A stretch of 9,465 bases of DNA from a virus (lineage: Duplodnaviria > Heunggongvirae > Uroviricota > Caudoviricetes), in the IMG/VR virus record IMGVR_UViG_2711768056_000002, positions 1-9,465 of that record. One strand, 5' to 3'. The notes under the pieces were generated by a model. That model saw only the letters and a list, made by a program, of their open reading frames with translations. It was not told where the DNA came from and ran no database searches. Position numbers and translations under genes: made by a program. This document shows positions 1 to 9,465 of this stretch, piece after piece. The stretch's first letter is position 1. Each line of letters starts with the position of its first letter.

Positions 1-15
1 ATTCAGGGGGCCAGT

Positions 16-591
16 CTACTCACGAATGAGTCTCAATGGTATTCCAGCATAAGATGATGATGGTCTTGATAGTTTTTTACCAACTAATGACTTAGTGCCA
101 ATAATACACCCATATGGTATTACAGAACCTTTGTTTATTGTGACACCTTCACCAACCCACACATGGTCTGAGATAACAATATCTTTTGCGTGATTTATCC
201 TCTCTCCACTTTCAATATCAATAATAGGATGTTCATCTGAAGTTCTAATATAAATAGAACTAGAGAACATGCAATCGTCACCAATTGTAATTGATTTACC
301 TTCCATTGCGAAGAAATGCACACCAGCGGTGGTCGTCCCGCTTCCAATAATTAACTTTGAACTGTTTTGCCGAATATCAATACAGCCTCTTATATTGCTC
401 TTTTTTTTAATATGCAAGGTATTATTCTCACCAATGATGTTTATTCTTAAATTTCTAAGAACTACACCTTCATCTATTGTAATTTTATGCCCGCTACCCT
501 GCACATTAACTTTAACACTTTTGTCAATGAGTACTGATGGATGTATATATATTTCATTACCACTTTCAAATTCACTGAATATATTTTCCAT
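16..591 (-). CDS. Hexapeptide-repeat (left-handed beta-helix) sugar O-acetyltransferase, LacA/Maa/NeuO-like; candidate lysogenic-conversion enzyme
   Basis: 191-codon ORF with ATG at 591..589 on the minus strand; stop codon included at 18..16. Translation shows tandem [LIV]-G-x-x-x-x hexapeptide units (IGDDCMF, HVWVGEGVTINKGSVIPYGCIIGTKSLVG) and a C-terminal ...SSYAGIPLRLIRE that resembles the conserved C-terminus of galactoside/maltose O-acetyltransferases. No obvious hydrophobic transmembrane stretch. AT-rich like the adjacent tailspike gene and on the same strand, about 100 nt downstream of it. Confidence 0.75.
   Translation of the reverse strand: MENIFSEFESGNEIYIHPSVLIDKSVKVNVQGSGHKITIDEGVVLRNLRINIIGENNTLHIKKKSNIRGCIDIRQNSSKLIIGSGTTTAGVHFFAMEGKSITIGDDCMFSSSIYIRTSDEHPIIDIESGERINHAKDIVISDHVWVGEGVTINKGSVIPYGCIIGTKSLVGKKLSRPSSSYAGIPLRLIRE
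401..408 (-). repeat. A8 homopolymer tract (T8 on the plus strand) inside the acetyltransferase coding sequence, at codons HIKKKS
   Basis: Plus-strand positions 401-408 read tttttttt, flanked by c and aa. On the coding strand this is cat att aaa aaa aag agc. Confidence 0.9.
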
Positions 592-691
592 AAAAATATT
601 ATCCGCATTACATAAACAGTCATACCAATCGATACAATCTATCTCTGGTAGTATAAACGACCTTCCAATTCCATGGAAGATCCATTACACG

Positions 692-2497
692 TTATAGGTT
701 TTCGAGTTTGTTCAATCTTTGCTCTAACCCCTCTATCCTTGAAAATGCAACATCTATAGCCTTTGTAACAAACGGTATAACCTGTTCGTAGGCAATTGTT
801 TTTACATCGCATCCATTGTTTACTAGATGATCTTGATATATACCACAGTCAATTCCAAGTCGATCAAGTAATTCTTTAACTTGCTGTGCAAGATACCCGG
901 CATGTTCTCTTTTCCTTTTTCTACTGCCATCTTTTTCATGTTGATGAATTCTAGTTTCAAAAATCGGATTGCCATTAGAATCATCACCAATTTTTACATT
1001 GTATTCTTCTATATAATCATCACGAAAATCCCACTTATAAAAATATGGGATTATTCCACGGACGAATGATACAGCAAGTTCTCCGTCTATTATTCGTTTA
1101 TCTGCTTTATCACGCTCATCAGACCGAGTTTGCACCGTACCATATACATAAACTGTCTGAGAAGAATTTCCTAACTGAATCTCATGATCTCCACCAACTC
1201 TGGCACGGTAGCCTAAAGCTACACAATTTAATTTCTCTTTTGCAGGTGTCCCATCAATCAAAAACCTACCAGCTTGATGTCCAAGATATACTAATTGGGT
1301 TCCAGTAGTCTCACTATCTCCTGACGCTGCACCAACAAAAACATTATCACTTCCTGTTGTTAAATTAAAGCCGGAAGCCCTACCAATAAGAACTGAATCG
1401 TTCATTTTTGTTGCTTTATATCCTGCTTGCATCCCACAAAAAACAACACCATTTAATCCATTCTGTGACCATGCAGCTTGATACCCTATAGCAACAATAT
1501 TATTGGGAGATTCCCCATATGAAGACAAACCAAGAGAAGCCTCACGTCCTAGTGCAACGTTTCCAGAACCATCCACATTTCTAAATAAGGCAGAGCGACC
1601 TGCAGCAAGATTATTACCGCCAGTTCCCGTCTCAGCACCAGAGAATGCTCCTATATAGGTATTACCACCACCAGTTGAGTTATTTTGCATTGCTGCTTGA
1701 CCGACAGCAACGTTATCTCTTCCTGTTGTTGTTTGTGACCCAGCATCCGTACCAACTGAAACATTTCTCTCTCCTGATGTTAATAGTTTGCCAGCGTTAT
1801 AACCAACCACTACATTATAACTGCCGGTTTTATAGTTGGCATAAGAAGAACTTTGAGCGTAAATAAAAATATTATAACTACCTGTAGTTAACAGTGCTCC
1901 AGCCTCATGTCCAAGTAGAACATTGCGCTGTCCTGTTGTAAGGCTTGCACCGGCTCGTCTACCAATACCAGTATTTTCCGCACCAACAGCCTCATCTGAC
2001 TCGTTACCTATAATTGATGATCCTGCTCCAACTCCGAAAAAAGCATTATTTTTCGCATATTCATTAGAAGAAAATGCATCAATTCCCCATACCGTATTAC
2101 TTGGGTCAGCATAACCAGGCGAATTTTCACCAGAAAAATTGGTTAATTCCTGCCTTAACTGATCTGGAGCATATTTCATTACATTTGGGAAATAGTGCTG
2201 CTGAGAGCCATACGCATCAAAAATCGCCATTGAGTGATTTTTTATAGTCGCAAACTTACCGAATTGACCATTCAATACAGGTTGTCCAGCTTGACTTATT
2301 TTTATTGGTTGAGAAACCTTAATATATTTTCCATTCTCATTCTCAAAATAAACATCCACTTGATTATCTGGATTAGTCGGATCGGTATCAGGCTTCCCGA
2401 TATAAATGCTTCCATTCGATACTGATTTAAATGTTCTTGACATTGTGAACAATTGATTAGGCATGGAAACTATAATGTTAGGTATAATGTCTGTCAT
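692..2497 (-). CDS. Tailspike / tail fibre protein with P22-type N-terminal head-binding domain, glycine-rich repeat shaft and C-terminal intramolecular chaperone (peptidase S74-like) domain
   Basis: 601-codon ORF, ATG at 2497..2495 preceded by GGAG about 10 nt upstream on the minus strand; stop TAA at 694..692. The N-terminal ~110 aa (MTDIIPNIIVSMPNQLFTMSRTFKSVSNGSIYIGKPDTDPTNPDNQVDVYFENENG...HSMAIFDAYGSQQHYFPNV) closely resemble the P22 tailspike head-binding domain as I recall it. The middle carries degenerate N-[VI]-x-[VIL]-G-x-x-A-G-x-x-x-T-T-G repeats. The C-terminal ~143 aa begin SDERDK and end ...RIEGLEQRLNKLENL, matching the self-cleaving chaperone domains of endosialidase and T5 pb1-type fibres. 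Confidence 0.9.
   Translation of the reverse strand: MTDIIPNIIVSMPNQLFTMSRTFKSVSNGSIYIGKPDTDPTNPDNQVDVYFENENGKYIKVSQPIKISQAGQPVLNGQFGKFATIKNHSMAIFDAYGSQQHYFPNVMKYAPDQLRQELTNFSGENSPGYADPSNTVWGIDAFSSNEYAKNNAFFGVGAGSSIIGNESDEAVGAENTGIGRRAGASLTTGQRNVLLGHEAGALLTTGSYNIFIYAQSSSYANYKTGSYNVVVGYNAGKLLTSGERNVSVGTDAGSQTTTGRDNVAVGQAAMQNNSTGGGNTYIGAFSGAETGTGGNNLAAGRSALFRNVDGSGNVALGREASLGLSSYGESPNNIVAIGYQAAWSQNGLNGVVFCGMQAGYKATKMNDSVLIGRASGFNLTTGSDNVFVGAASGDSETTGTQLVYLGHQAGRFLIDGTPAKEKLNCVALGYRARVGGDHEIQLGNSSQTVYVYGTVQTRSDERDKADKRIIDGELAVSFVRGIIPYFYKWDFRDDYIEEYNVKIGDDSNGNPIFETRIHQHEKDGSRKRKREHAGYLAQQVKELLDRLGIDCGIYQDHLVNNGCDVKTIAYEQVIPFVTKAIDVAFSRIEGLEQRLNKLENL
695..1123 (-). other. Tailspike C-terminal intramolecular chaperone / autoproteolytic domain (peptidase S74-like); predicted self-cleavage immediately before Ser459
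   Basis: Residues 459-601. Ser459 is encoded by the minus-strand codon at 1123..1121, verified as revcomp aga = tct, followed by D-E-R-D-K. The S-D-x-R-x-K start and the helical, Leu-rich C-terminus are characteristic of this domain family. The call is from recalled motifs, not a profile search. Confidence 0.6.
2168..2497 (-). other. Tailspike N-terminal head-binding (particle-attachment) domain, P22 type
   Basis: Residues 1 to about 110 of the tailspike ORF; estimated ~60% identity by eye to the P22 tailspike N-terminus recalled from memory. The domain boundary is approximate. Confidence 0.75.
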
Positions 2498-2661
2498 TTA
2501 ATTTGCTCCAGACGTAGCAATGCCGAACAAGATGCAACTTGCCCTGCATTGCACTAATGTCAGTTATGATTTGTTAATTATGAGATGAGTCTATGCAAAG
2601 AGATCTGTTGAATATTGCGCTCTATATATTTGGTTTTTGCACGTTCCTGGTGTTTGCGAAG
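2498..2661 (-). promoter_or_regulatory. 164-bp spacer between the gp16-like and tailspike genes; contains the tailspike ribosome-binding site and possibly a promoter or attenuating hairpin
   Basis: This is the only non-coding gap longer than 100 bp inside the structural block. GGAG lies upstream of the tailspike ATG. A 7-bp inverted repeat, gcaatgc at 2517-2523 and gcattgc at 2546-2552, flanks a 22-nt spacer. I could not identify a convincing sigma70 -35/-10 pair by eye. Confidence 0.3.
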
Positions 2662-4659
2662 CTATTCTGACAACGCATCAGACTTAGCCCCCTGCGTCAG
2701 AGCGTTAATTGCCTTTTGTGCCTGCTGCATTGCTTTCTCAAAGGCTGTTGATCCGCGTGGGGTATTTGCCATTCGGAGCATTGCATTTCTGAATGGTTCT
2801 CTCTCATAGGCGCGAGTAAGAAGTCCGTAGCTTACTGCTGCGCCAGTTGTCGCCGGGTTCATTGCCGTCCCATACCCGATAATGAACGGGATGGTTTGCT
2901 GCCCTGTTGGTGTTGTTACTGCCGCTTTTGCTGCCTGCTGAGTGGACTGAAGGTAATTTTTCAATCCTTTCAGATAAGCAGCGTCCTGCCCCTTAAATGT
3001 GATGCCAGTCTGGCTTTGCAGGATGTTAAGCTGTCGAAGGAACTGGTCAGGGGATCCACCTGATTTCTCCATCGCCTTTCCAATGATGCCATTGCGCATT
3101 TGCGCCCTGCCAACACGACCAACTGAGTTATACAGCGTCTTAATTTCCGATTTGTTCTTGCTGAATAGCATGTTGTTGACAACTTCCGGCGTCAGATCGC
3201 CTTTCATGAGAACATTCTTCAGCCTGGTATTCTTTAGTTTCGCGGCTTCGTCAGCGTAGACGGCATTGGCCTGCTGATATTTACGGAGAGTATCGTTGCC
3301 AAGATTCTGACCAATGGCACCATTGATATCGTCGGTCATTGCCTTGTAAACGCGCTGAATTGCAGCATCGGAACGGTTTGGTAACACTGGTCGCTCACCC
3401 TTCACGTCCATTCTGAACTGGCTGCGCAGATCGCTTAATTGCTTCAAATCCAGATTTACCGGACCATCAGGACCAGCATTGCGAACAAGCTCATCACGAT
3501 AGGACTGAAGTTTTGAAATAGTCTCGTTATCAGCAACCTTACCAAGCTTCTGCAGGTTAGATATTTCTGTATCAATCTGCTGAATTGCTCTTGCAGGCTG
3601 AATGTTTATTCCCGCCATAGCATTCTGAACCTGCTCCAGTCGATTTCCTGCAGCGCGACGAATTCCTGATGTTTTCGCTTTAAGGCTGTCAATAACAACC
3701 GCTGGATCATACTCACCGAATTTATCAGCAAATCTCTGAACCAACTGGCTTCTCGCTTCCTGTTGCGTTGCTCTCATTCCGCTTGTGCCCGCCAGGGGGA
3801 TATTTTCTGCTGTCGTTTGCGCCATTTTTCCGACGCGGGAAGTAGGCTGTAACAGGTCTGTGGTGTGCAGAGGCACTCCTTCACGCTCTGCAAATCTGAT
3901 AGCTTGCTGCGCTTCTGGCGCAATAGCACCACGAACTCCACGATAAGCAGCACCTAATCCACGTCCGGCAGCGTTAATAGCACCGCCAGCCAGCACACCA
4001 ACGCCCAAATCGGTGGCGAGTGCTTCCGCATCATCTTTCGCACTATTTGCAGCAAGTGATCCAACTGCGTTTTCTGCTAGAAGGCGAGTTGCCCCATGAG
4101 CAATTCGACCAGCAAGTGTTGGTGCCTGTGCTGCCGCTCTCTCAACGCCAGCAGGAGTGAGGTAAGGCAATGCTTCAGCAAATACCCTTCCCTCTGTCGT
4201 TTGTGGAGTCAGCGCGCCTTGCTGAAGGCCAAAGTCCTGCTCTAATCCCTGCGTTGTTACACGTGGCGCTGGTTGATATGTACCATCGCCAATGCCGAGT
4301 TTACCGCCAGCCCAAGCCGCCGCGCTTGTTACAGCATCGGCAACTGATGCAGGTATGTTTGCCACGTTCACGCCAGCCTGCACCAGTCCGCGACCAGTCT
4401 CTTTTACTGCTTCGCCAAGATCAGACATAAATCCACTTTGCTGTGGTTGTTGCTGTGCTACTGGTTGCTGTGTCTCCACTTGCTGCACATATGGCAATGG
4501 ATAGGCAGCATAGAAAGCTTGCTTAGCCTGCTCTGCATTTTCTCCGGCTTGCGGGGCAACGACTTCATTGAAGTATTGCTCCTGAGCCTGCGCTTTTTGT
4601 TCTGGTGCTAACGCCTGATACTGTGGAGAGGCGATAACATCTTTCCATGCTTTAGCCAT
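2662..4659 (-). CDS. Ejection (E) protein, P22 gp16-like
   Basis: 665-codon ORF, ATG at 4659..4657 overlapping the stop of the upstream gene (minus strand reads TAATG), with a GGGGTGA ribosome-binding site. The N-terminus MAKAWKDVIASPQYQALAPEQKAQAQEQYF... matches my recollection of P22 gp16. It sits in the gp16 position, last of the three E proteins before the tailspike. Confidence 0.85.
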   Translation of the reverse strand: MAKAWKDVIASPQYQALAPEQKAQAQEQYFNEVVAPQAGENAEQAKQAFYAAYPLPYVQQVETQQPVAQQQPQQSGFMSDLGEAVKETGRGLVQAGVNVANIPASVADAVTSAAAWAGGKLGIGDGTYQPAPRVTTQGLEQDFGLQQGALTPQTTEGRVFAEALPYLTPAGVERAAAQAPTLAGRIAHGATRLLAENAVGSLAANSAKDDAEALATDLGVGVLAGGAINAAGRGLGAAYRGVRGAIAPEAQQAIRFAEREGVPLHTTDLLQPTSRVGKMAQTTAENIPLAGTSGMRATQQEARSQLVQRFADKFGEYDPAVVIDSLKAKTSGIRRAAGNRLEQVQNAMAGINIQPARAIQQIDTEISNLQKLGKVADNETISKLQSYRDELVRNAGPDGPVNLDLKQLSDLRSQFRMDVKGERPVLPNRSDAAIQRVYKAMTDDINGAIGQNLGNDTLRKYQQANAVYADEAAKLKNTRLKNVLMKGDLTPEVVNNMLFSKNKSEIKTLYNSVGRVGRAQMRNGIIGKAMEKSGGSPDQFLRQLNILQSQTGITFKGQDAAYLKGLKNYLQSTQQAAKAAVTTPTGQQTIPFIIGYGTAMNPATTGAAVSYGLLTRAYEREPFRNAMLRMANTPRGSTAFEKAMQQAQKAINALTQGAKSDALSE

Positions 4660-5954
4660 TAATCACCCCATAGTGAAGAAAAGTTACTGCCAGTAGTAGA
4701 TTGTTGCCCTGGCGTATTCTGTACTGGCTCCTGATAATCAAACTGTTTTTTAACAGTGCTCAACTTGCTTTCAAGCTGATTTCGAATCTTTCCGATAGAG
4801 TCACGAAAAGCCTTTTCACTCATTTTGGGACTTAGAGCACCAACCGCATCAGATAATTTTTTACCCTCAGCATCTGAAAGAGCCCCCATCCCCTTCAGGG
4901 ACTGCACCATAGGGAGGAAAGTTTGAGCTTTAAAGGTGTCGAGTCTTGCTTCAAAGTTAGCCGCATCAGAGCCAGGAACTGTCGGAAACGCTGAGCGAAT
5001 TCCTACTGCTTTTGAAAGGCCGGGGCTTTGCTCTATCTCGTTGAGAGAATCAAGCGCGGTGCTGAACGTATCAACTGCACCCTGAGCGGCGGCCTGCCTG
5101 TCAGCGCGGGCTATGTCAGCCTTTTGCCGAACATCTGCCTGTTTCTGTTTTAGCTCTTCGAGCTTTAACTGATTGCTTTCTCTGGCTATCTGTCTGTCCA
5201 GAGCCTTTTCTTGTAATTCTGCTCTTTGTATTTCTCGGGAAAGAGCAGCATTCTGTGCGCTGATGTTCTGTCCACGTATCTGGATGTCCTGACCTCGAGC
5301 TGTTAGTGCTTCTCCTGCCTGATTGCTGCGGATTGTCTCTGCCAGCCTGTCTCGGTCAATCTCACGACCAGCCATCTTGTCCTGAACATTGAAGTAATCA
5401 ATCGGACCAAGCGCAGCCATCCCAAGGTGATCAACAAACTCACCAAATCCTGAAGGATTCTGCTGATACATCTGAGCAACGTTGTTAGGGTCAACACCGA
5501 CGCGATTCAGTTCCTTGGCGTTGTTTTGCAGCCATGATTGCATTGCTTCTGGAGACGAGGCAGCAAGGCGTGCGCCAGCCGCTAAGGTGCCGATAGAATT
5601 GCGCTGGTCTTCATCAATGAACCCCATGCCTTTACGAATAGATTCAATCTGGTCTGGATATTGAGTAGCCAACTGACGCAAAGCTCCGCGATCACCAGAC
5701 GCATAAGCATTAGCGTATGCCTGCTGAAATTCTTTCTGCCGCTGAGCCTGCTTTTCCTGATGAAAAACACCCGCAATACCTGAAAGACCTTGCAAAGCAG
5801 TCAGCCCAACATTGTTAGCACCTGAACGCTCAATATCATTGTTCTGCCTGATAAGCTGAAGCGTATTGCCGATGTCATTTACGTTCGGAGCGTTTGAGTT
5901 GACACCACCGATACCAGCCAACAATCCGCCATTTGTTCCTTGCCAAGTAGCCAT
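4659..5954 (-). CDS. Ejection (E) protein, P22 gp20-like
   Basis: 431-codon ORF, ATG at 5954..5952 preceded by AAGGGG on the minus strand; stop TAA at 4661..4659. N-terminus MATWQGTNGGLLAGIGGVNSNAPNVND...; central Gln/Arg/Glu-rich predicted coiled coil. Position between the gp7-like and gp16-like genes. Confidence 0.8.
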   Translation of the reverse strand: MATWQGTNGGLLAGIGGVNSNAPNVNDIGNTLQLIRQNNDIERSGANNVGLTALQGLSGIAGVFHQEKQAQRQKEFQQAYANAYASGDRGALRQLATQYPDQIESIRKGMGFIDEDQRNSIGTLAAGARLAASSPEAMQSWLQNNAKELNRVGVDPNNVAQMYQQNPSGFGEFVDHLGMAALGPIDYFNVQDKMAGREIDRDRLAETIRSNQAGEALTARGQDIQIRGQNISAQNAALSREIQRAELQEKALDRQIARESNQLKLEELKQKQADVRQKADIARADRQAAAQGAVDTFSTALDSLNEIEQSPGLSKAVGIRSAFPTVPGSDAANFEARLDTFKAQTFLPMVQSLKGMGALSDAEGKKLSDAVGALSPKMSEKAFRDSIGKIRNQLESKLSTVKKQFDYQEPVQNTPGQQSTTGSNFSSLWGD

Positions 5955-5963
5955 GATTACCCC

Positions 5964-6659
5964 TTAAAACAACGATCCAAGCAGGCCAAGTCCGCCGCCA
6001 ATTGCCGCACCTAATCCAGTGCCAAGTCCTGGAACAATAGAGCCAAGAGCAGCGCCAGTCATAGCCCCTGAAGCTCCGCCACTAATTGCTGTCTGAAGAC
6101 CTGATGGTTTATTGGCATTAGCAGCGGCAAGAGCCGCACTTTGCTGCGAAATCTGACTCATGTTGTTGGCATATGTCTGCCCGGCGTTTGCCTGACCTTG
6201 CAGTGCGCCAAGACCAATATTTGCCAGATTCTGGTAGTTGTTCATCTGACCAGACAGCCACTGCTGACCAAGCGTTGGTGCGATTGTTGCTAACTGATTA
6301 CCGGTTGCAGTGGAACCCAATCCACCTGTTGCTTCCGCTGCCGCCAGACTCTGATAGCGAGCCTGACCAGCAAGATCTTTGTACTGCTGAGAGTTGTAAT
6401 ACTGGTTAAGTGCCTGACCTTGCCCCTGAAGAGAGGAAAGATTCTGCAATTGTGATACGTACTGCTGAGCGAGTGGCGTGAACGGAGCAAGGTTTTTCAT
6501 GATCGTCTGCCACTGCTGATTCTGCAGGTCTGCGGCATACTTCTGAGCTTCTGCGGCATACTTTGCGCTTTTATCAGAACTGCCACCTTTCCCACCCTTT
6601 TCAGGGCAATAAGGTTCCTCGCCGCGCAGTTTTCTGCCCAGCTTAAATGCATATAACAT
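5964..6659 (-). CDS. Ejection (E) protein, P22 gp7-like
   Basis: 231-codon ORF, ATG at 6659..6657 preceded by GGGAG; stop TAA at 5966..5964. N-terminus MLYAFKLGRKLRGEEPYCPEKGGKGGSSDKS...; Gln/Asn-rich middle; Gly/Ala/Leu-rich hydrophobic C-terminus. Size close to the 229 aa I recall for P22 gp7. Confidence 0.8.
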   Translation of the reverse strand: MLYAFKLGRKLRGEEPYCPEKGGKGGSSDKSAKYAAEAQKYAADLQNQQWQTIMKNLAPFTPLAQQYVSQLQNLSSLQGQGQALNQYYNSQQYKDLAGQARYQSLAAAEATGGLGSTATGNQLATIAPTLGQQWLSGQMNNYQNLANIGLGALQGQANAGQTYANNMSQISQQSAALAAANANKPSGLQTAISGGASGAMTGAALGSIVPGLGTGLGAAIGGGLGLLGSLF

Positions 6660-6661
6660 GG

Positions 6662-7117
6662 CTATCTCCCGTGATTCAGGAAGTCGATTAGTTCTTCGCG
6701 TGTGGCGCTGTAAAACGTCACGTCATCCACGCCTTTGAAGTATTTTTTGATGGTTCCTACACGATTAAGGCCAATCATTGCGCAGTACATCTGACCGTGG
6801 CGGAATTTGCGTGCAGCGAACGATGTGACGCACTGAACGGTGGTGTTAGTCAGAATGTATCGCCAGAAAGCCAGCCCGATTTCCTTGCTGAATCCGCGAA
6901 TCTCTGGCAGGTACATGGCGTGGCAATCAAAGGTCAGCGGCTGAATCTCCTGATAGTAAACAATTCCGCCGAACTGCCCGTGCACGTTCACCTCAAAGTA
7001 ACGGCATTCAGGCTTGTAGTCGTATCCATCGCCGTTGTTGCTCCCGGCGATAATGTCAGGGTGATTTCCTACTGCTTCGATCAGGTCGATGTTTCGCGTT
7101 GGTTTGAAATGAATCAT
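6662..7117 (-). CDS. P22 gp14-like small late protein (function not well defined)
   Basis: ORF in the gp14 position between the needle and gp7 genes. I place the start at the ATG at 7117..7115, which overlaps the needle stop (minus strand reads TGATG). The ORF track extends one codon further, to a GTG at 7120..7118. Stop TAG at 6664..6662. Assigned mainly by synteny and size. Confidence 0.6.
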   Translation of the reverse strand: MIHFKPTRNIDLIEAVGNHPDIIAGSNNGDGYDYKPECRYFEVNVHGQFGGIVYYQEIQPLTFDCHAMYLPEIRGFSKEIGLAFWRYILTNTTVQCVTSFAARKFRHGQMYCAMIGLNRVGTIKKYFKGVDDVTFYSATREELIDFLNHGR

Positions 7118-8070
7118 CACTGCTCCGCGATTATCTTGATGGTTGTGGCAGTAAACGCCGCACCATTCGACTGAATGGTTAACGTGCTGCCATTTGTGGC
7201 AAGAAAGCCGTCTTTATCCACGCTGAAGAACGTAGCTAACAGGATGTTGTCGGTTGTTGTCGCCGCATTACGACTGCTGACCAACGTGTCAGGAACAGAG
7301 CCGGAAAAGGTTAGCTGCATTGACCTGTTGGCGGTTCCGCTGGGCCACGTCCCGACGATCGACAGCTTGAAGAACAGGGTTTTGTTCTCGTTGAACACAA
7401 CCATCTTGTTGTTAACGGTGTCGAAGAATGGTGCCAATGTGCCGGATGACGGCGTGAGCGTTTTCAGCAGGCTAACAAGGTTGGTCGGCGCTGTCGGGAT
7501 GGTTACAGATACTCCTGAGTAAACAACCTCTGATTTCTTGCGCGTGGTGGCATACTCAAGCGCAGATATTCTTGTTGAGTGATCACCAACTGTGCTTTGT
7601 AGCGTCGAAATACTTCCTTCTGCCGCTGTGAGCCTGGTATCAAGTGCGTCGATATCGGTTGTATTCTGAGTTATGCGCGCATCATGGTTTGCTAACTCAG
7701 ATTCATTGGCAGCAATTCGCGTATCGTGATCAGCCAGCTCTGTTTCAGCAGCCGTAATCCTTGTTTCATGATCTGCAAGAGTGCTTTCCGCTGCTGCAAT
7801 TCTATGTTCATGATTGATGAGAGTTGATTCAGCAGCTTCAATTCTGGATTCATGGTCTGCAAGGGTGACATCCTGCTCATCATTCTTCACCTGTGCATCA
7901 TAAGCCCCCTTCCCTGCTTCGTTGGCCTTGTTAGCCACGTTACCAACATCAGCACCCTGTGCAATAACGTACAGCAGATATGACTGCGAGAAGATATTAC
8001 GCGGAAGGACTGATGTGTCGAGCCGCGTAGCCTGGATGATTACCGGCTCATTGAGATTCGAATCAGCCAT
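7117..8070 (-). CDS. Tail needle (P22 gp26-like) with extended repeat coiled coil and a large C-terminal domain
   Basis: 317-codon ORF, ATG at 8070..8068 overlapping the stop of the gp10-like gene (TAATG); stop TGA at 7119..7117. The N-terminal ~68 aa ([68 protein letters not shown]) closely match the P22 gp26 N-terminus as I recall it. They are followed by heptad-pattern repeats and a ~150-aa Ser/Thr-rich C-terminal region. Confidence 0.9.
7654..7863 (-). repeat. Five tandem degenerate 42-bp repeats encoding 14-residue (double-heptad) units of the tail-needle coiled coil
   Basis: Protein units [14 protein letters not shown] / [14 protein letters not shown] / [14 protein letters not shown] / [14 protein letters not shown] / [14 protein letters not shown]. 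Matching DNA periodicity is visible on the plus strand, e.g. ...tcatg(a/g)tctgcaag(a/g)gt... recurring at about 42-bp spacing between 7680 and 7860. A further weaker unit extends to about 7612. Confidence 0.8.
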
Positions 8071-9464
8071 TACTCAATCCTTATCTGGCAGCCAGACAGA
8101 GTGACAGGTGACTTCGTGATAACGCGCAATTTGAAACCGACATTTTTCCTGATGCGCCCGACACGCTTCCACAAAACGCGTTTGTCGTAAACGAACGGTT
8201 CATTCTGCTCAATCATCTGCTCACGCCCGTAATTGATGCCGTCAGTGGTTGCAGAGAGAAAAAGGCGGTCAGCATACTGCGCAACGCCAGTTGACGACTC
8301 AACCTCAAGGTCGAACACTCTGGCGTTATCCGCTTTGAACAACGGAGTAAACAGCAGGTGTTCCTGTTGAAGACCATACTGACTGCTGATATCGAACTGC
8401 AATTTCCCGGTCACGGACTCCAGCTTATCGCCGCACGTTATCTGATTGCCTTCGTAAATGAAGTCGATAGCGCGGTACACATCGTCATACAAGCCTGTTT
8501 TCAGCACACACCATTGCGGACCATTGGCGCTTGAAGATGCGTCGTACACGAGGACGTGGCGCGGAAGGTGGATAATCAGCAACTCATGAGCATCAAACCG
8601 CAACGATTCCATCACGCCATCAGCCAGTTCATCAGCAGTGTAGGAACGAAGGATTTTCTCAATGCTCGCGCTGGCGATTGGTGATACCTGACCGGATCCG
8701 ATGATGTACACAGACGGCGCACCTGTTGCCGGATTGCTGATGAACGCATACGAATCAGCAAACGGCGTTTTGCAGTAGGTTCCGGCAATACCTTTCTGCA
8801 CCATCAGCGATGGCTGTGCGACATACAAAGCGGCACCAACGGTGGTTGCACCTGTCAGGGAAAAATATTCAATCGTCGATGAACCAAAGCAGACGATGAA
8901 GTCTCGCCATGTCCCGATACCGATGATGCCGTCCGGCTGCGATTCTGCGCGATATTGTGCGCTGTATCGGTCAGGATGCGATTCGTCTCCAAGGTCAGTG
9001 ATAAACCATGAATCCGTGCCGTCTTTTGACCACGCATAACGCCCACGTAAGCGCGTAATGTCACGAACCGAACCTAACTCATACTGCGTGAATCCGCTGT
9101 CTGTAGGCCAGTTTGAGACGGTTTTAACCGTGCCATCATAGCGATACTCGACCAGTTGACCATTAACGCCAACCGCCTGTGATGTTCGACCATGTGCCAT
9201 TGATACGCGACCACTTCCAGCAACATCACCCACTTCACTTTCACCCTTATACAGCTTGCCACCGCACACGCGATAAACAGCATTCTGCGCCATGTTGTAC
9301 TCGACGCCGCGAGATACACCGTTCACATCAGAACGTTTGGCAATGCCCGGGAATGAGCGAAGATATCCGCTGCTGTTAAGGATTTCTTTGGGTGTAGCCA
9401 GCATATTCACTGGCAGATAGTCGATATAGTCGGCGTTTCTAAAGTCTTTGCCGACACCTTTCAT
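8070..9464 (-). CDS. Tail hub / packaged-DNA stabilisation protein, P22 gp10-like; 5' end probably truncated by the window edge
   Basis: 464-codon ORF running to the last full codon of the window; stop TAA at 8072..8070. Translation from the in-window ATG at 9464..9462 begins [44 protein letters not shown]... and ends ...[17 protein letters not shown], matching my recollection of P22 gp10 throughout. P22 gp10 is slightly longer, so the true start is probably a few codons beyond position 9465. Confidence 0.88.
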
Positions 9465-9465
9465 A

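Follow-up and report, generated by a model that had tools for sequence, protein, structure and literature searches.

A probable mobile, capsule-related tailspike and O-acetyltransferase cassette in P22/Sf6-like prophages of Escherichia coli

P22-like phages are already known for tailspike and conversion modules of mosaic make-up, for AT-rich cargo genes and for conserved boundary motifs. Receptor-binding domains are exchanged at the linker that joins them to the anchor, and the conserved 'boundary' motifs are hotspots of tailspike recombination (PMC2629481; PMC10408124). In Sf6 (gene 14 and oac) and P22 (gene 9 and gtrABC), the adsorption protein is encoded at the end of the late operon and is paired with a conversion gene that modifies the receptor. 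In CUS-3, a P22-like prophage of E. coli K1, the endosialidase tailspike gene siaK1 is followed by neuO, whose product protects K1 lysogens from capsule-targeting phages (PMC9659370). Here we analyze a stretch of 9,465 nt from a Caudoviricetes record of IMG/VR (IMGVR_UViG_2711768056_000002, positions 1 to 9,465; the window from here on), which carries at its left end a tailspike gene followed by an acetyltransferase gene, both AT-rich when compared to the neighboring virion genes.

The arrangement resembles that of CUS-3 in several aspects. Both are P22-like prophages in which a tailspike with a P22-type head-binding domain (HBD) and a C-terminal S74 chaperone is followed directly downstream, on the same strand and at the integrase end of the prophage, by the gene of a putative left-handed beta-helix capsule O-acetyltransferase, and in both the module is AT-rich (35% G+C in the neuO region of CUS-3). 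In the CUS-3 annotation, the DNA just before the tailspike gene is also labelled as a 'boundary sequence'. Unlike CUS-3, the window has a divergent HBD allele (66% identity), a predicted adhesin-like beta-roll in the receptor-binding part rather than an endosialidase, and an enzyme 41% identical to NeuO but without its phase-variable heptanucleotide (poly-psi) repeat; the capsule locus associated with the cassette is of a type other than K1 and encodes a 1157-aa HAD-type polymerase. With Sf6 and P22 the window shares the position at the late-operon end and the pairing of an adsorption protein with a candidate receptor-modifying gene, and with Sf6 also a 94% identical backbone that includes the gene 13-gene 14 spacer. 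However, the Sf6 tailspike is a right-handed beta-helix endorhamnosidase, and Oac is an integral-membrane acyltransferase-3 protein that acts on the O-antigen and is encoded on the opposite strand, whereas the window enzyme is of the cytoplasmic NeuO type.

We suggest that positions 1-2512 of the window make up the right-hand portion of a cassette of about 2.8 kb for host range and lysogenic conversion, and that this cassette is formed by a remnant of the 3' end of intS (outside the window), a NeuO-family O-acetyltransferase gene and a complete tailspike gene. The cassette would move among P22/Sf6/CUS-3-like E. coli prophages by homologous recombination, with the left crossover at the integrase end of the prophage and the right one in a short conserved patch at the start of the tailspike gene (2490-2512). 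Taken as a whole, with its relation to the capsule included, we regard this as the likely explanation of the data.

The right-hand edge of the cassette is sharply defined. Identity among its copies ends exactly at 2512, 15 nt before the tailspike ATG, in seven contexts corresponding to six complete genomes and one IMG/VR contig (the compared stretches L002, L010, L011, L018, L019, L020 and L021; CM2 and the window are excepted). Beyond this point the contexts carry an Arc-type immI region, an antirepressor with arc/mnt genes or ClpP and YafO cargo genes, while in the E. coli CM2 prophage and in the window the Sf6-type spacer is found. This spacer (2515-2661) is identical in 146 of 147 positions (99.3%) to that of the E. 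coli 7/2 prophage and in 137 of 147 (93%) to that of Sf6, both of which have tailspikes unrelated to the one in the window, and backbone identity to these two phages drops from 93-99% to 65-66% right after ATGACAGA. The 23-nt patch TCTGGAGCAAATTAAATGACAGA (approximately 2490-2512), containing the Shine-Dalgarno sequence and the start codon, is kept in 6 of the 6 P22-like contexts aligned. Since the identity of the cassette ends at 2512 and the spacer belongs to phages with other tailspikes, we place the right crossover in this patch. A megablast alignment in which Sf6 homology seemed to reach into the tailspike gene (85% over 2397-2661) was discarded as an artefact, being composed of about 93% identity in the spacer and about 67% in the HBD when taken by segment.

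The first-pass annotation had proposed that the whole tailspike gene was acquired, with a junction in the intergenic spacer instead of the usual linker between domains. Movement of the entire gene agrees with our results, as the HBD travels together with the acetyltransferase gene in block 19-2512, which is found at 99.2-99.7% identity in 7 complete E. coli genomes (CM2 and six others), and the stop of identity at 2512 in the seven contexts puts the junction ahead of the gene rather than at the linker. The spacer itself was only partly the right place: the junction is indeed upstream of the ATG, but the remainder of the 164 bp is Sf6-type backbone and not incoming DNA. The idea that a whole-gene junction replaces the linker junction has to be given up, because both exist. 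Residues 134-601 of the tailspike are 83% identical to a spike encoded on a 72-kb SU10-like podovirus contig and 73% identical to another on a 48-kb siphovirus contig, and these two spikes have a PF18668 anchor in place of the HBD. For the receptor-binding region alone, identity is 84% to protein cluster P0002 and 76% to P0003, which are also PF18668-anchored. A classical anchor/receptor junction is thus present in this tailspike as well, at a deeper time level. In this it is like the tailspikes known for linker exchange, with a region shared at 73-83% with spikes of other anchors and a short conserved motif flanking the exchanged unit, but the most recent exchanges of the window cassette differ from them in having moved the whole gene, anchor included, with the crossover at the Shine-Dalgarno/ATG patch.

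The window from position 19 to 9465 is 99.9% identical to the prophage of E. coli CM2. The cassette is rare, being found in 7 of 5426 complete E. coli genomes, and its tailspike part (692-2512) occurs at 99.8% identity at the end of one IMG/VR contig (an uncultivated virus genome, UViG); identity is above 99% in all 8 copies. The carriers represent at least 5 prophage contexts, with three integration sites (torT, dacD and argW/intS) and different immI layouts. Among the lysogens at the torT site there are four TorT protein alleles; their hosts therefore do not form a single clone, and the cassette was placed independently several times. Its compositional deviation, patchy distribution and defined junctions are those of a horizontally acquired island.

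The left end of the common block is located 240-265 bp past the acyltransferase stop codon, within the last 60-87 nt of intS. In the argW-integrated copy intS is intact (L019:2134-3294), while the copies at the torT site keep only a pseudogene remnant of it. This suggests that the cassette originated in a prophage of the argW/IntS type and was then recombined into prophages at other sites. Fragments of 63-87 nt recorded as 'integrase' pseudogenes were seen in L001 (8708-8770), L018, L020 and L021 (3208-3294).

Table 1. Features of the 9,465-nt window, listed from the cassette towards the virion genes.
Feature	Positions	Strand	Basis
IS2 terminal inverted repeat, last 18 nt	1..18	.	identity to annotated IS2 end
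NeuO/OatWY-family left-handed beta-helix O-acetyltransferase (putative), truncated to 191 aa	16..591	-	PDB sequence search
Terminator-like hairpin and T-rich tail, 3' of tailspike stop codon	659..682	-	consensus scan, pattern match only
Tailspike gene, 601 aa, G+C 38.6%, GC3 0.23	692..2497	-	open reading frame list; Pfam Head_binding and Peptidase_S74
C-terminal intramolecular chaperone/auto-processing domain (Peptidase_S74), residues 456-601	695..1132	-	PF13884
Receptor-binding region, residues 134 to ~455	1133..2098	-	AlphaFold2 model, Foldseek
HBD, residues 1 to ~117	2147..2497	-	PF09008
Conserved patch TCTGGAGCAAATTAAATGACAGA (Shine-Dalgarno, ATG, first codons), right-hand crossover interval	2490..2512	-
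Spacer from gene 16 to tailspike, 164 bp; Sf6-type backbone part 2513..2661, 39% G+C, holds change-point 2638	2498-2661	-
Virion/ejection gene run, GC-balanced, Sf6-like	2662..9464	-	Pfam matches; 93.9% identity to Sf6 over 97% of query
gp16-like gene	2662-4659	-
gp20	4659-5954	-
gp7	5964-6659	-
gp14/DUF2824	6662-7120	-	Pfam
Needle with Sf6-type knob	7117-8070	-	Pfam
gp10	8070-9464	-	gene incomplete at window end

The AT-rich left end noticed in the first-pass annotation is compositionally distinct, and its four spot counts of 60-nt lines were exact (18/60, 25/60, 36/60 and 27/60). G+C content is 37.7% in 1-2661 versus 50.3% in 2662-9465, and the 60-nt lines of the two parts differ strongly (Mann-Whitney p = 2.6e-17). 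The two-segment maximum-likelihood change-point is at 2638 (2-lnL support interval 2614-2689), and its log-likelihood ratio reaches 62.9, whereas 200 shuffled sequences gave 2.7 on average and never more than 7.05. The contrast is mainly synonymous, with G+C at third codon positions (GC3) of 0.25 in the acyltransferase and 0.23 in the tailspike versus 0.42-0.63 in six virion genes.

The change-point is placed 24 nt into the spacer, counted from the gene-16 stop codon, and is 126-148 bp away from the recombination junction. Analysis of three relatives revealed a step at the homologous position, up to 24 nt from the gene-16 stop, in Sf6 (43.0% vs 50.2% G+C), in E. coli 7/2 (37.7% vs 51.9%, larger than in the window) and in WWCOL-236, where an AT-rich immI region comes first and the tailspike begins only after another 1.4 kb, and the step is still at the end of gene 16. 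The HBD alleles of Sf6, E. coli 7/2, STEFF_1 and CUS-3 are already low in G+C (42.5-43.1%), as are the spacers of Sf6, E. coli 7/2 and CUS-3 (37-42%). Since the step is present in relatives with other tailspikes or with an intervening immI region, it does not mark the junction. It is a generic architecture of this phage group, and past gene 16 all parts, from the spacer or immI region through the tailspike to the cargo, are AT-rich irrespective of the tailspike present. The exceptional AT-richness of the cassette makes the step more marked in the window than in Sf6, but not more than in E. coli 7/2. The proposal that the G+C transition in the spacer was the graft point could therefore not be maintained, as the spacer is backbone and the change-point and junction are in different places. 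A compositional break is ordinary for these phages and adds little alone, and a G+C change-point need not coincide with a recombination junction.

The low G+C of the cassette is best read as membership in an AT-rich pool of capsule and accessory genes combined with an AT drift specific to this lineage. The acyltransferase open reading frame (ORF) has 34% G+C (GC3 0.25), and GC3 varies from 0.21 to 0.30 across the HBD, the receptor-binding region, the S74 domain and the acetyltransferase. The acetyltransferase has the composition of capsule 'region 2' genes (30-33% G+C), and the cassette shows its own AT shift at synonymous sites. This shift was measured in residues 134-601, where changes polarized against the two closest homologues comprise 90 strong-to-weak (G/C to A/T) versus 25 weak-to-strong on the window branch (p = 8e-10). 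The whole-gene GC3 of these homologues is 0.37 and 0.56, against 0.21 in the corresponding region of the window, and their source contigs have 44-48% G+C. The HBD has 35.1% G+C versus 42.5% in Sf6, E. coli 7/2 and CUS-3, although its additional shift over the other alleles is not significant (36 vs 22 changes, p = 0.087).

Other explanations of the AT-rich island were considered. It had been put forward as a plausible target of H-NS, to be silenced as a xenogeneic region in the lysogen. Stretches of 34-39% G+C are typical of H-NS targets, and here 2.6 kb in this range lie in a genome of about 50.7%. Nevertheless, the high-affinity motif TCGATAAATT, allowing up to 2 mismatches, is not enriched (12 matches versus 10.1 expected, a count that says little by itself), and the late-operon genes are already repressed in the lysogen by the prophage repressor; neuO is directly controlled by DsdC, with H-NS mentioned by analogy only (PMC9659370). 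We consider H-NS silencing somewhat unlikely.

It could also be that the AT-richness is just a by-product of relaxed selection and of the universal G/C-to-A/T mutational bias in accessory genes that are located at the end of the prophage and seldom expressed. It would then say nothing about origin or function, and the capsule association would be explained by shared host ancestry. The cargo at the prophage end of unrelated relatives is equally AT-rich (GDSL esterase, 33%, and DUF1796, 34%, of E. coli 7/2; neuO region of CUS-3, 35%), and two independent IS2 insertions in the acetyltransferase gene, described below, suggest dispensability. The tailspike, however, is an essential virion gene that none of the 8 copies has lost or broken (identity above 99%), and the cassette still follows a single kps type across at least 5 prophage contexts, three attachment sites and four torT alleles. 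Furthermore, homologues of the acetyltransferase have a lower AT content than the DNA around them even in a metagenomic kps locus of 57% G+C, which points to a property of the family or gene pool, and we find this explanation unlikely.

That the whole tailspike-acetyltransferase block was imported, unameliorated, from a P22-like phage or host long resident in a lower-GC bacterium, the step being the graft point, is decidedly unlikely: the uniformly low GC3 of its four parts, the deep-branching HBD, the strong AT-directed bias on the window lineage and the rarity of the cassette would all suit it, but the step is in backbone DNA shared with phages of other tailspikes, the nearest receptor-binding homologues are on podovirus and siphovirus contigs of 44-48% G+C, neither a further copy nor a closer HBD turned up outside E. 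coli (Proteus P22-like phages have HBDs 64-65% identical, no closer than others), a tailspike scan of 185,579 GTDB species-representative genomes found no relative, and a foreign host is not required for low G+C since kps region 2 of E. coli itself has 30-33%. The lower-GC donor lineage suggested in the first-pass annotation was thus not found.

Returning to the mobile cassette, its tailspike gene occupies a P22-like position at the end of the late operon, with the minus-strand order gp10, needle, gp14, gp7, gp20, gp16, tailspike. The protein belongs to a cluster of 100% identical sequences (P0001) with 81 members on 123 contigs. Its HBD matches PF09008 over residues 1-113 (E = 1.5e-50) and, among proteins of known structure, Sf6 gp14 and P22 gp9 (E = 1e-33 to 1e-46; 2.8e-46 for Sf6 gp14, 7SG7), and the HBD of the AlphaFold2 model aligns to 1LKT and 7SG7 in Foldseek with TM of 0.7-0.8. 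It is a divergent, deep-branching allele, sharing with all other HBDs found 62-69% of its amino acids and 65-66% of its nucleotides. The HBD of epsilon34, about 75% identical, was called the most divergent allele then known (PMC2629481), and that of the window exceeds it.

The receptor-binding region is predicted to form a solenoid rich in Gly and Asn, in which the repeat unit measures about 17 residues. In the model, obtained for the monomer, short strands recur every 17 residues, and pLDDT is 80-93 over approximately residues 230-410, with a mean of 74.7 for the whole. Apart from the HBD, the best Foldseek matches are the Fusobacterium nucleatum CbpF (9GH4, E = 7.6e-4), a head of a trimeric autotransporter adhesin, and, weakly, YadA. 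Gly/Asn-rich short repeats and a narrow predicted solenoid are shared with these adhesin heads, although the fold match is weak (Foldseek E of about 1e-3 and TM of 0.25-0.30 for a monomer model), and we found no solved structure of this receptor-binding type. No Pfam match to a beta-helix or pectate lyase was obtained in the tailspike, and the monomer model (mean pLDDT 75) does not show a right-handed beta-helix endoglycosidase.

The C-terminal region matches Peptidase_S74 (PF13884) with 24.1 bits, above the cut-off of 22, and the Foldseek matches of the chaperone domain are the intramolecular chaperone auto-processing domain (ICA) of MyRF (7DC3) and the endosialidase chaperone (3GW6). As in other S74 fibres (the K1F endosialidase and SPO1 gp2.52-type spikes), there is a C-terminal auto-processing domain with an S-D-x-R-x-K motif, whose residues S459, D460, R462 and K464 are invariant in an alignment of 25 sequences; cleavage is predicted at Ser459 (codon 1121-1123). 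Within isolated phages, the best match to the region 134-601 is only 37% identical, and the architecture of HBD, adhesin-like beta-roll and S74 chaperone has no close relative among them. The tailspike would dock via its HBD, which in P22-like tailspikes binds the gp4/gp10 tail hub, and present a beta-roll that is folded and released by the C-terminal chaperone.

Two capsule O-acetyltransferases are the nearest solved relatives of the acyltransferase in its intact CM2 form: the PDB sequence search retrieved NeuO of CUS-3 (3JQY, E = 5e-33) and OatWY of meningococci (2WLC, E = 3e-31), followed at a distance by a maltose acetyltransferase (E = 6e-9). In the phage collection, 20 of the 23 records with homologues are of the CUS-3 neuO type, the other three being two Listeria and one Enterococcus phage records. 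The active site of NeuO has six conserved residues, including His147, Trp171, Met134 and Arg174, and the C-terminal Trp220 and Arg222 build the acceptor pocket and hold the catalytic His in place (PMC3046976). In the window enzyme M108, H121 and W145 align with Met134, His147 and Trp171, and the position of Arg174 is occupied by E148.

The intact gene of CM2 encodes 199 aa, including W195 and R197, which correspond to W220 and R222 of NeuO. The window ORF ends after E191 at a stop codon contributed by IS2, and the eight C-terminal residues, both of these among them, are lost. Positions 1-18 of the window (ATTCAGGGGGCCAGTCTA) are identical to the end of an annotated IS2 (L010:4490-4507), and homology to the intact CM2 gene starts only at position 19. 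Judging from these missing residues, this copy of the acetyltransferase was probably crippled by IS2. In LC-1302-2020 there is a second, independent IS2 insertion inside the gene, at the position equivalent to 190-195 of the window (IS2 at L010:3178-4507), indicating that the gene was struck by IS2 at least twice. The 5' heptanucleotide (AAGACTC)n poly-psi repeat of the NeuO type is absent, as no tandem repeats were found in 1-2700. A run of eight A is present at 401-408 within the coding sequence; it is conceivable that it acts as a slipped-strand switch replacing the heptanucleotide repeat.

Homologues of the acyltransferase with 51-58% identity were found inside kps capsule loci of Phytobacter and of two metagenomic contigs, and all three kps loci examined also encode a large HAD-type polymerase, homologous to that of CM2. 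CM2 has a canonical group 2 kps locus adjoining the gsp genes. Its region 2 contains five genes with 30-33% G+C, close to the 34% of the prophage acyltransferase, and no acetyltransferase of its own; the 1157-aa HAD-type polymerase is 43% identical to the one of Phytobacter, and three genes have counterparts of 48-61% identity in one of the metagenomic loci. This type of region 2 (7.5 kb, at least 99.5% identity; L017:6931-14452, corresponding to 22614-30135 of the CM2 chromosome) was detected in 12 of the 5426 complete E. coli genomes, and these 12 include 6 of the 7 carriers of the cassette (hypergeometric p = 1.8e-16, uncorrected and ignoring population structure).

By analogy with CUS-3, the tailspike may recognize the CM2-type capsule and the enzyme may O-acetylate it. 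The adsorption protein would be specific to one particular group 2 capsule, and in the lysogen that same capsule would be acetylated, as NeuO of CUS-3 does for K1. It is possible, though we hold it as slightly less than an even case, that this is a second, independent instance of the CUS-3 principle, in which a capsule-specific adsorption protein and a NeuO-family enzyme converting the same capsule are combined, here with a non-canonical adhesin-type beta-roll tailspike and a rare group 2 K antigen of unassigned type, the product of a Bcs3-like HAD-domain polymerase.

Several points weigh against a capsule-related cassette. One carrier, OZ039848, does not have the kps locus, and six of the locus-positive genomes do not have the cassette; the tie of the tailspike and the enzyme to the capsule is drawn from context and co-occurrence. 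The receptor part is modeled as something other than the classical beta-helix of depolymerases, so capsule degradation is not implied. The promoter scan predicted no sigma-70 promoter between the tailspike hairpin and the acetyltransferase, and the AT shift could stem from a foreign donor or from a mutational bias in the accessory compartment.

The association is relevant to capsule typing. Serotypes K18 and K22 are described as sharing one and the same locus, with the difference between them probably due to an acetyltransferase whose gene lies elsewhere (PMC13171606). If the CUS-3-like reading is true, the enzyme would be a concrete example of the 'acetyltransferase outside the kps locus' invoked for such pairs (PMC13171606), and the variants of E. 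coli K serotypes could be partly defined by prophage content. The assignment of the CM2-type locus to K18_K22 was considered and is probably wrong, because it has five region 2 genes versus apparently three, homologous to K100, in that type (PMC13171606, supplementary file 5). The reference K18 and K22 genomes were not among the matches, and the carrier assemblies were not found in the supplements of PMC13171606. The cassette shows the kind of element that could explain pairs like K18/K22, even though the locus itself is probably not K18_K22.

In relation to what is established for this group, we see three modestly new aspects: exchange of the whole gene at the Shine-Dalgarno/ATG patch, which complements the textbook junction between anchor and receptor domain; an adhesin-like beta-roll tailspike, as predicted, on a P22 anchor; and a NeuO-family enzyme tied by co-occurrence to a rare capsule locus other than K1. 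That a prophage cassette goes together with a single rare capsule locus can be tested, and K-typing by kps only may miss modifications encoded by prophages.

Acyltransferase homologues also occur beside other tail or tailspike-like genes. In a Citrobacter freundii contig (L014:6001-9494), a 56% identical acyltransferase with 38% G+C, another member of the family carried by a phage, is located at a prophage end, adjoining an 852-aa tail protein and a GpJ-like gene (53-58% G+C) in a lambda-like tail context. In Phytobacter sp. AG2a (L012:6760-9096), the acyltransferase of the chromosomal kps locus adjoins a 778-aa Peptidase_G2 protein, similar to tailspikes and depolymerases.

Two minor features of the window complete the description. 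The hairpin behind the tailspike gene was found by the consensus scan with a stem of 9 bp and 4 G-C pairs. The needle gene encodes 317 aa, with repeated ADHExRIxAAExxL-like units in the coiled-coil shaft followed by the Sf6-type knob (PF16532).

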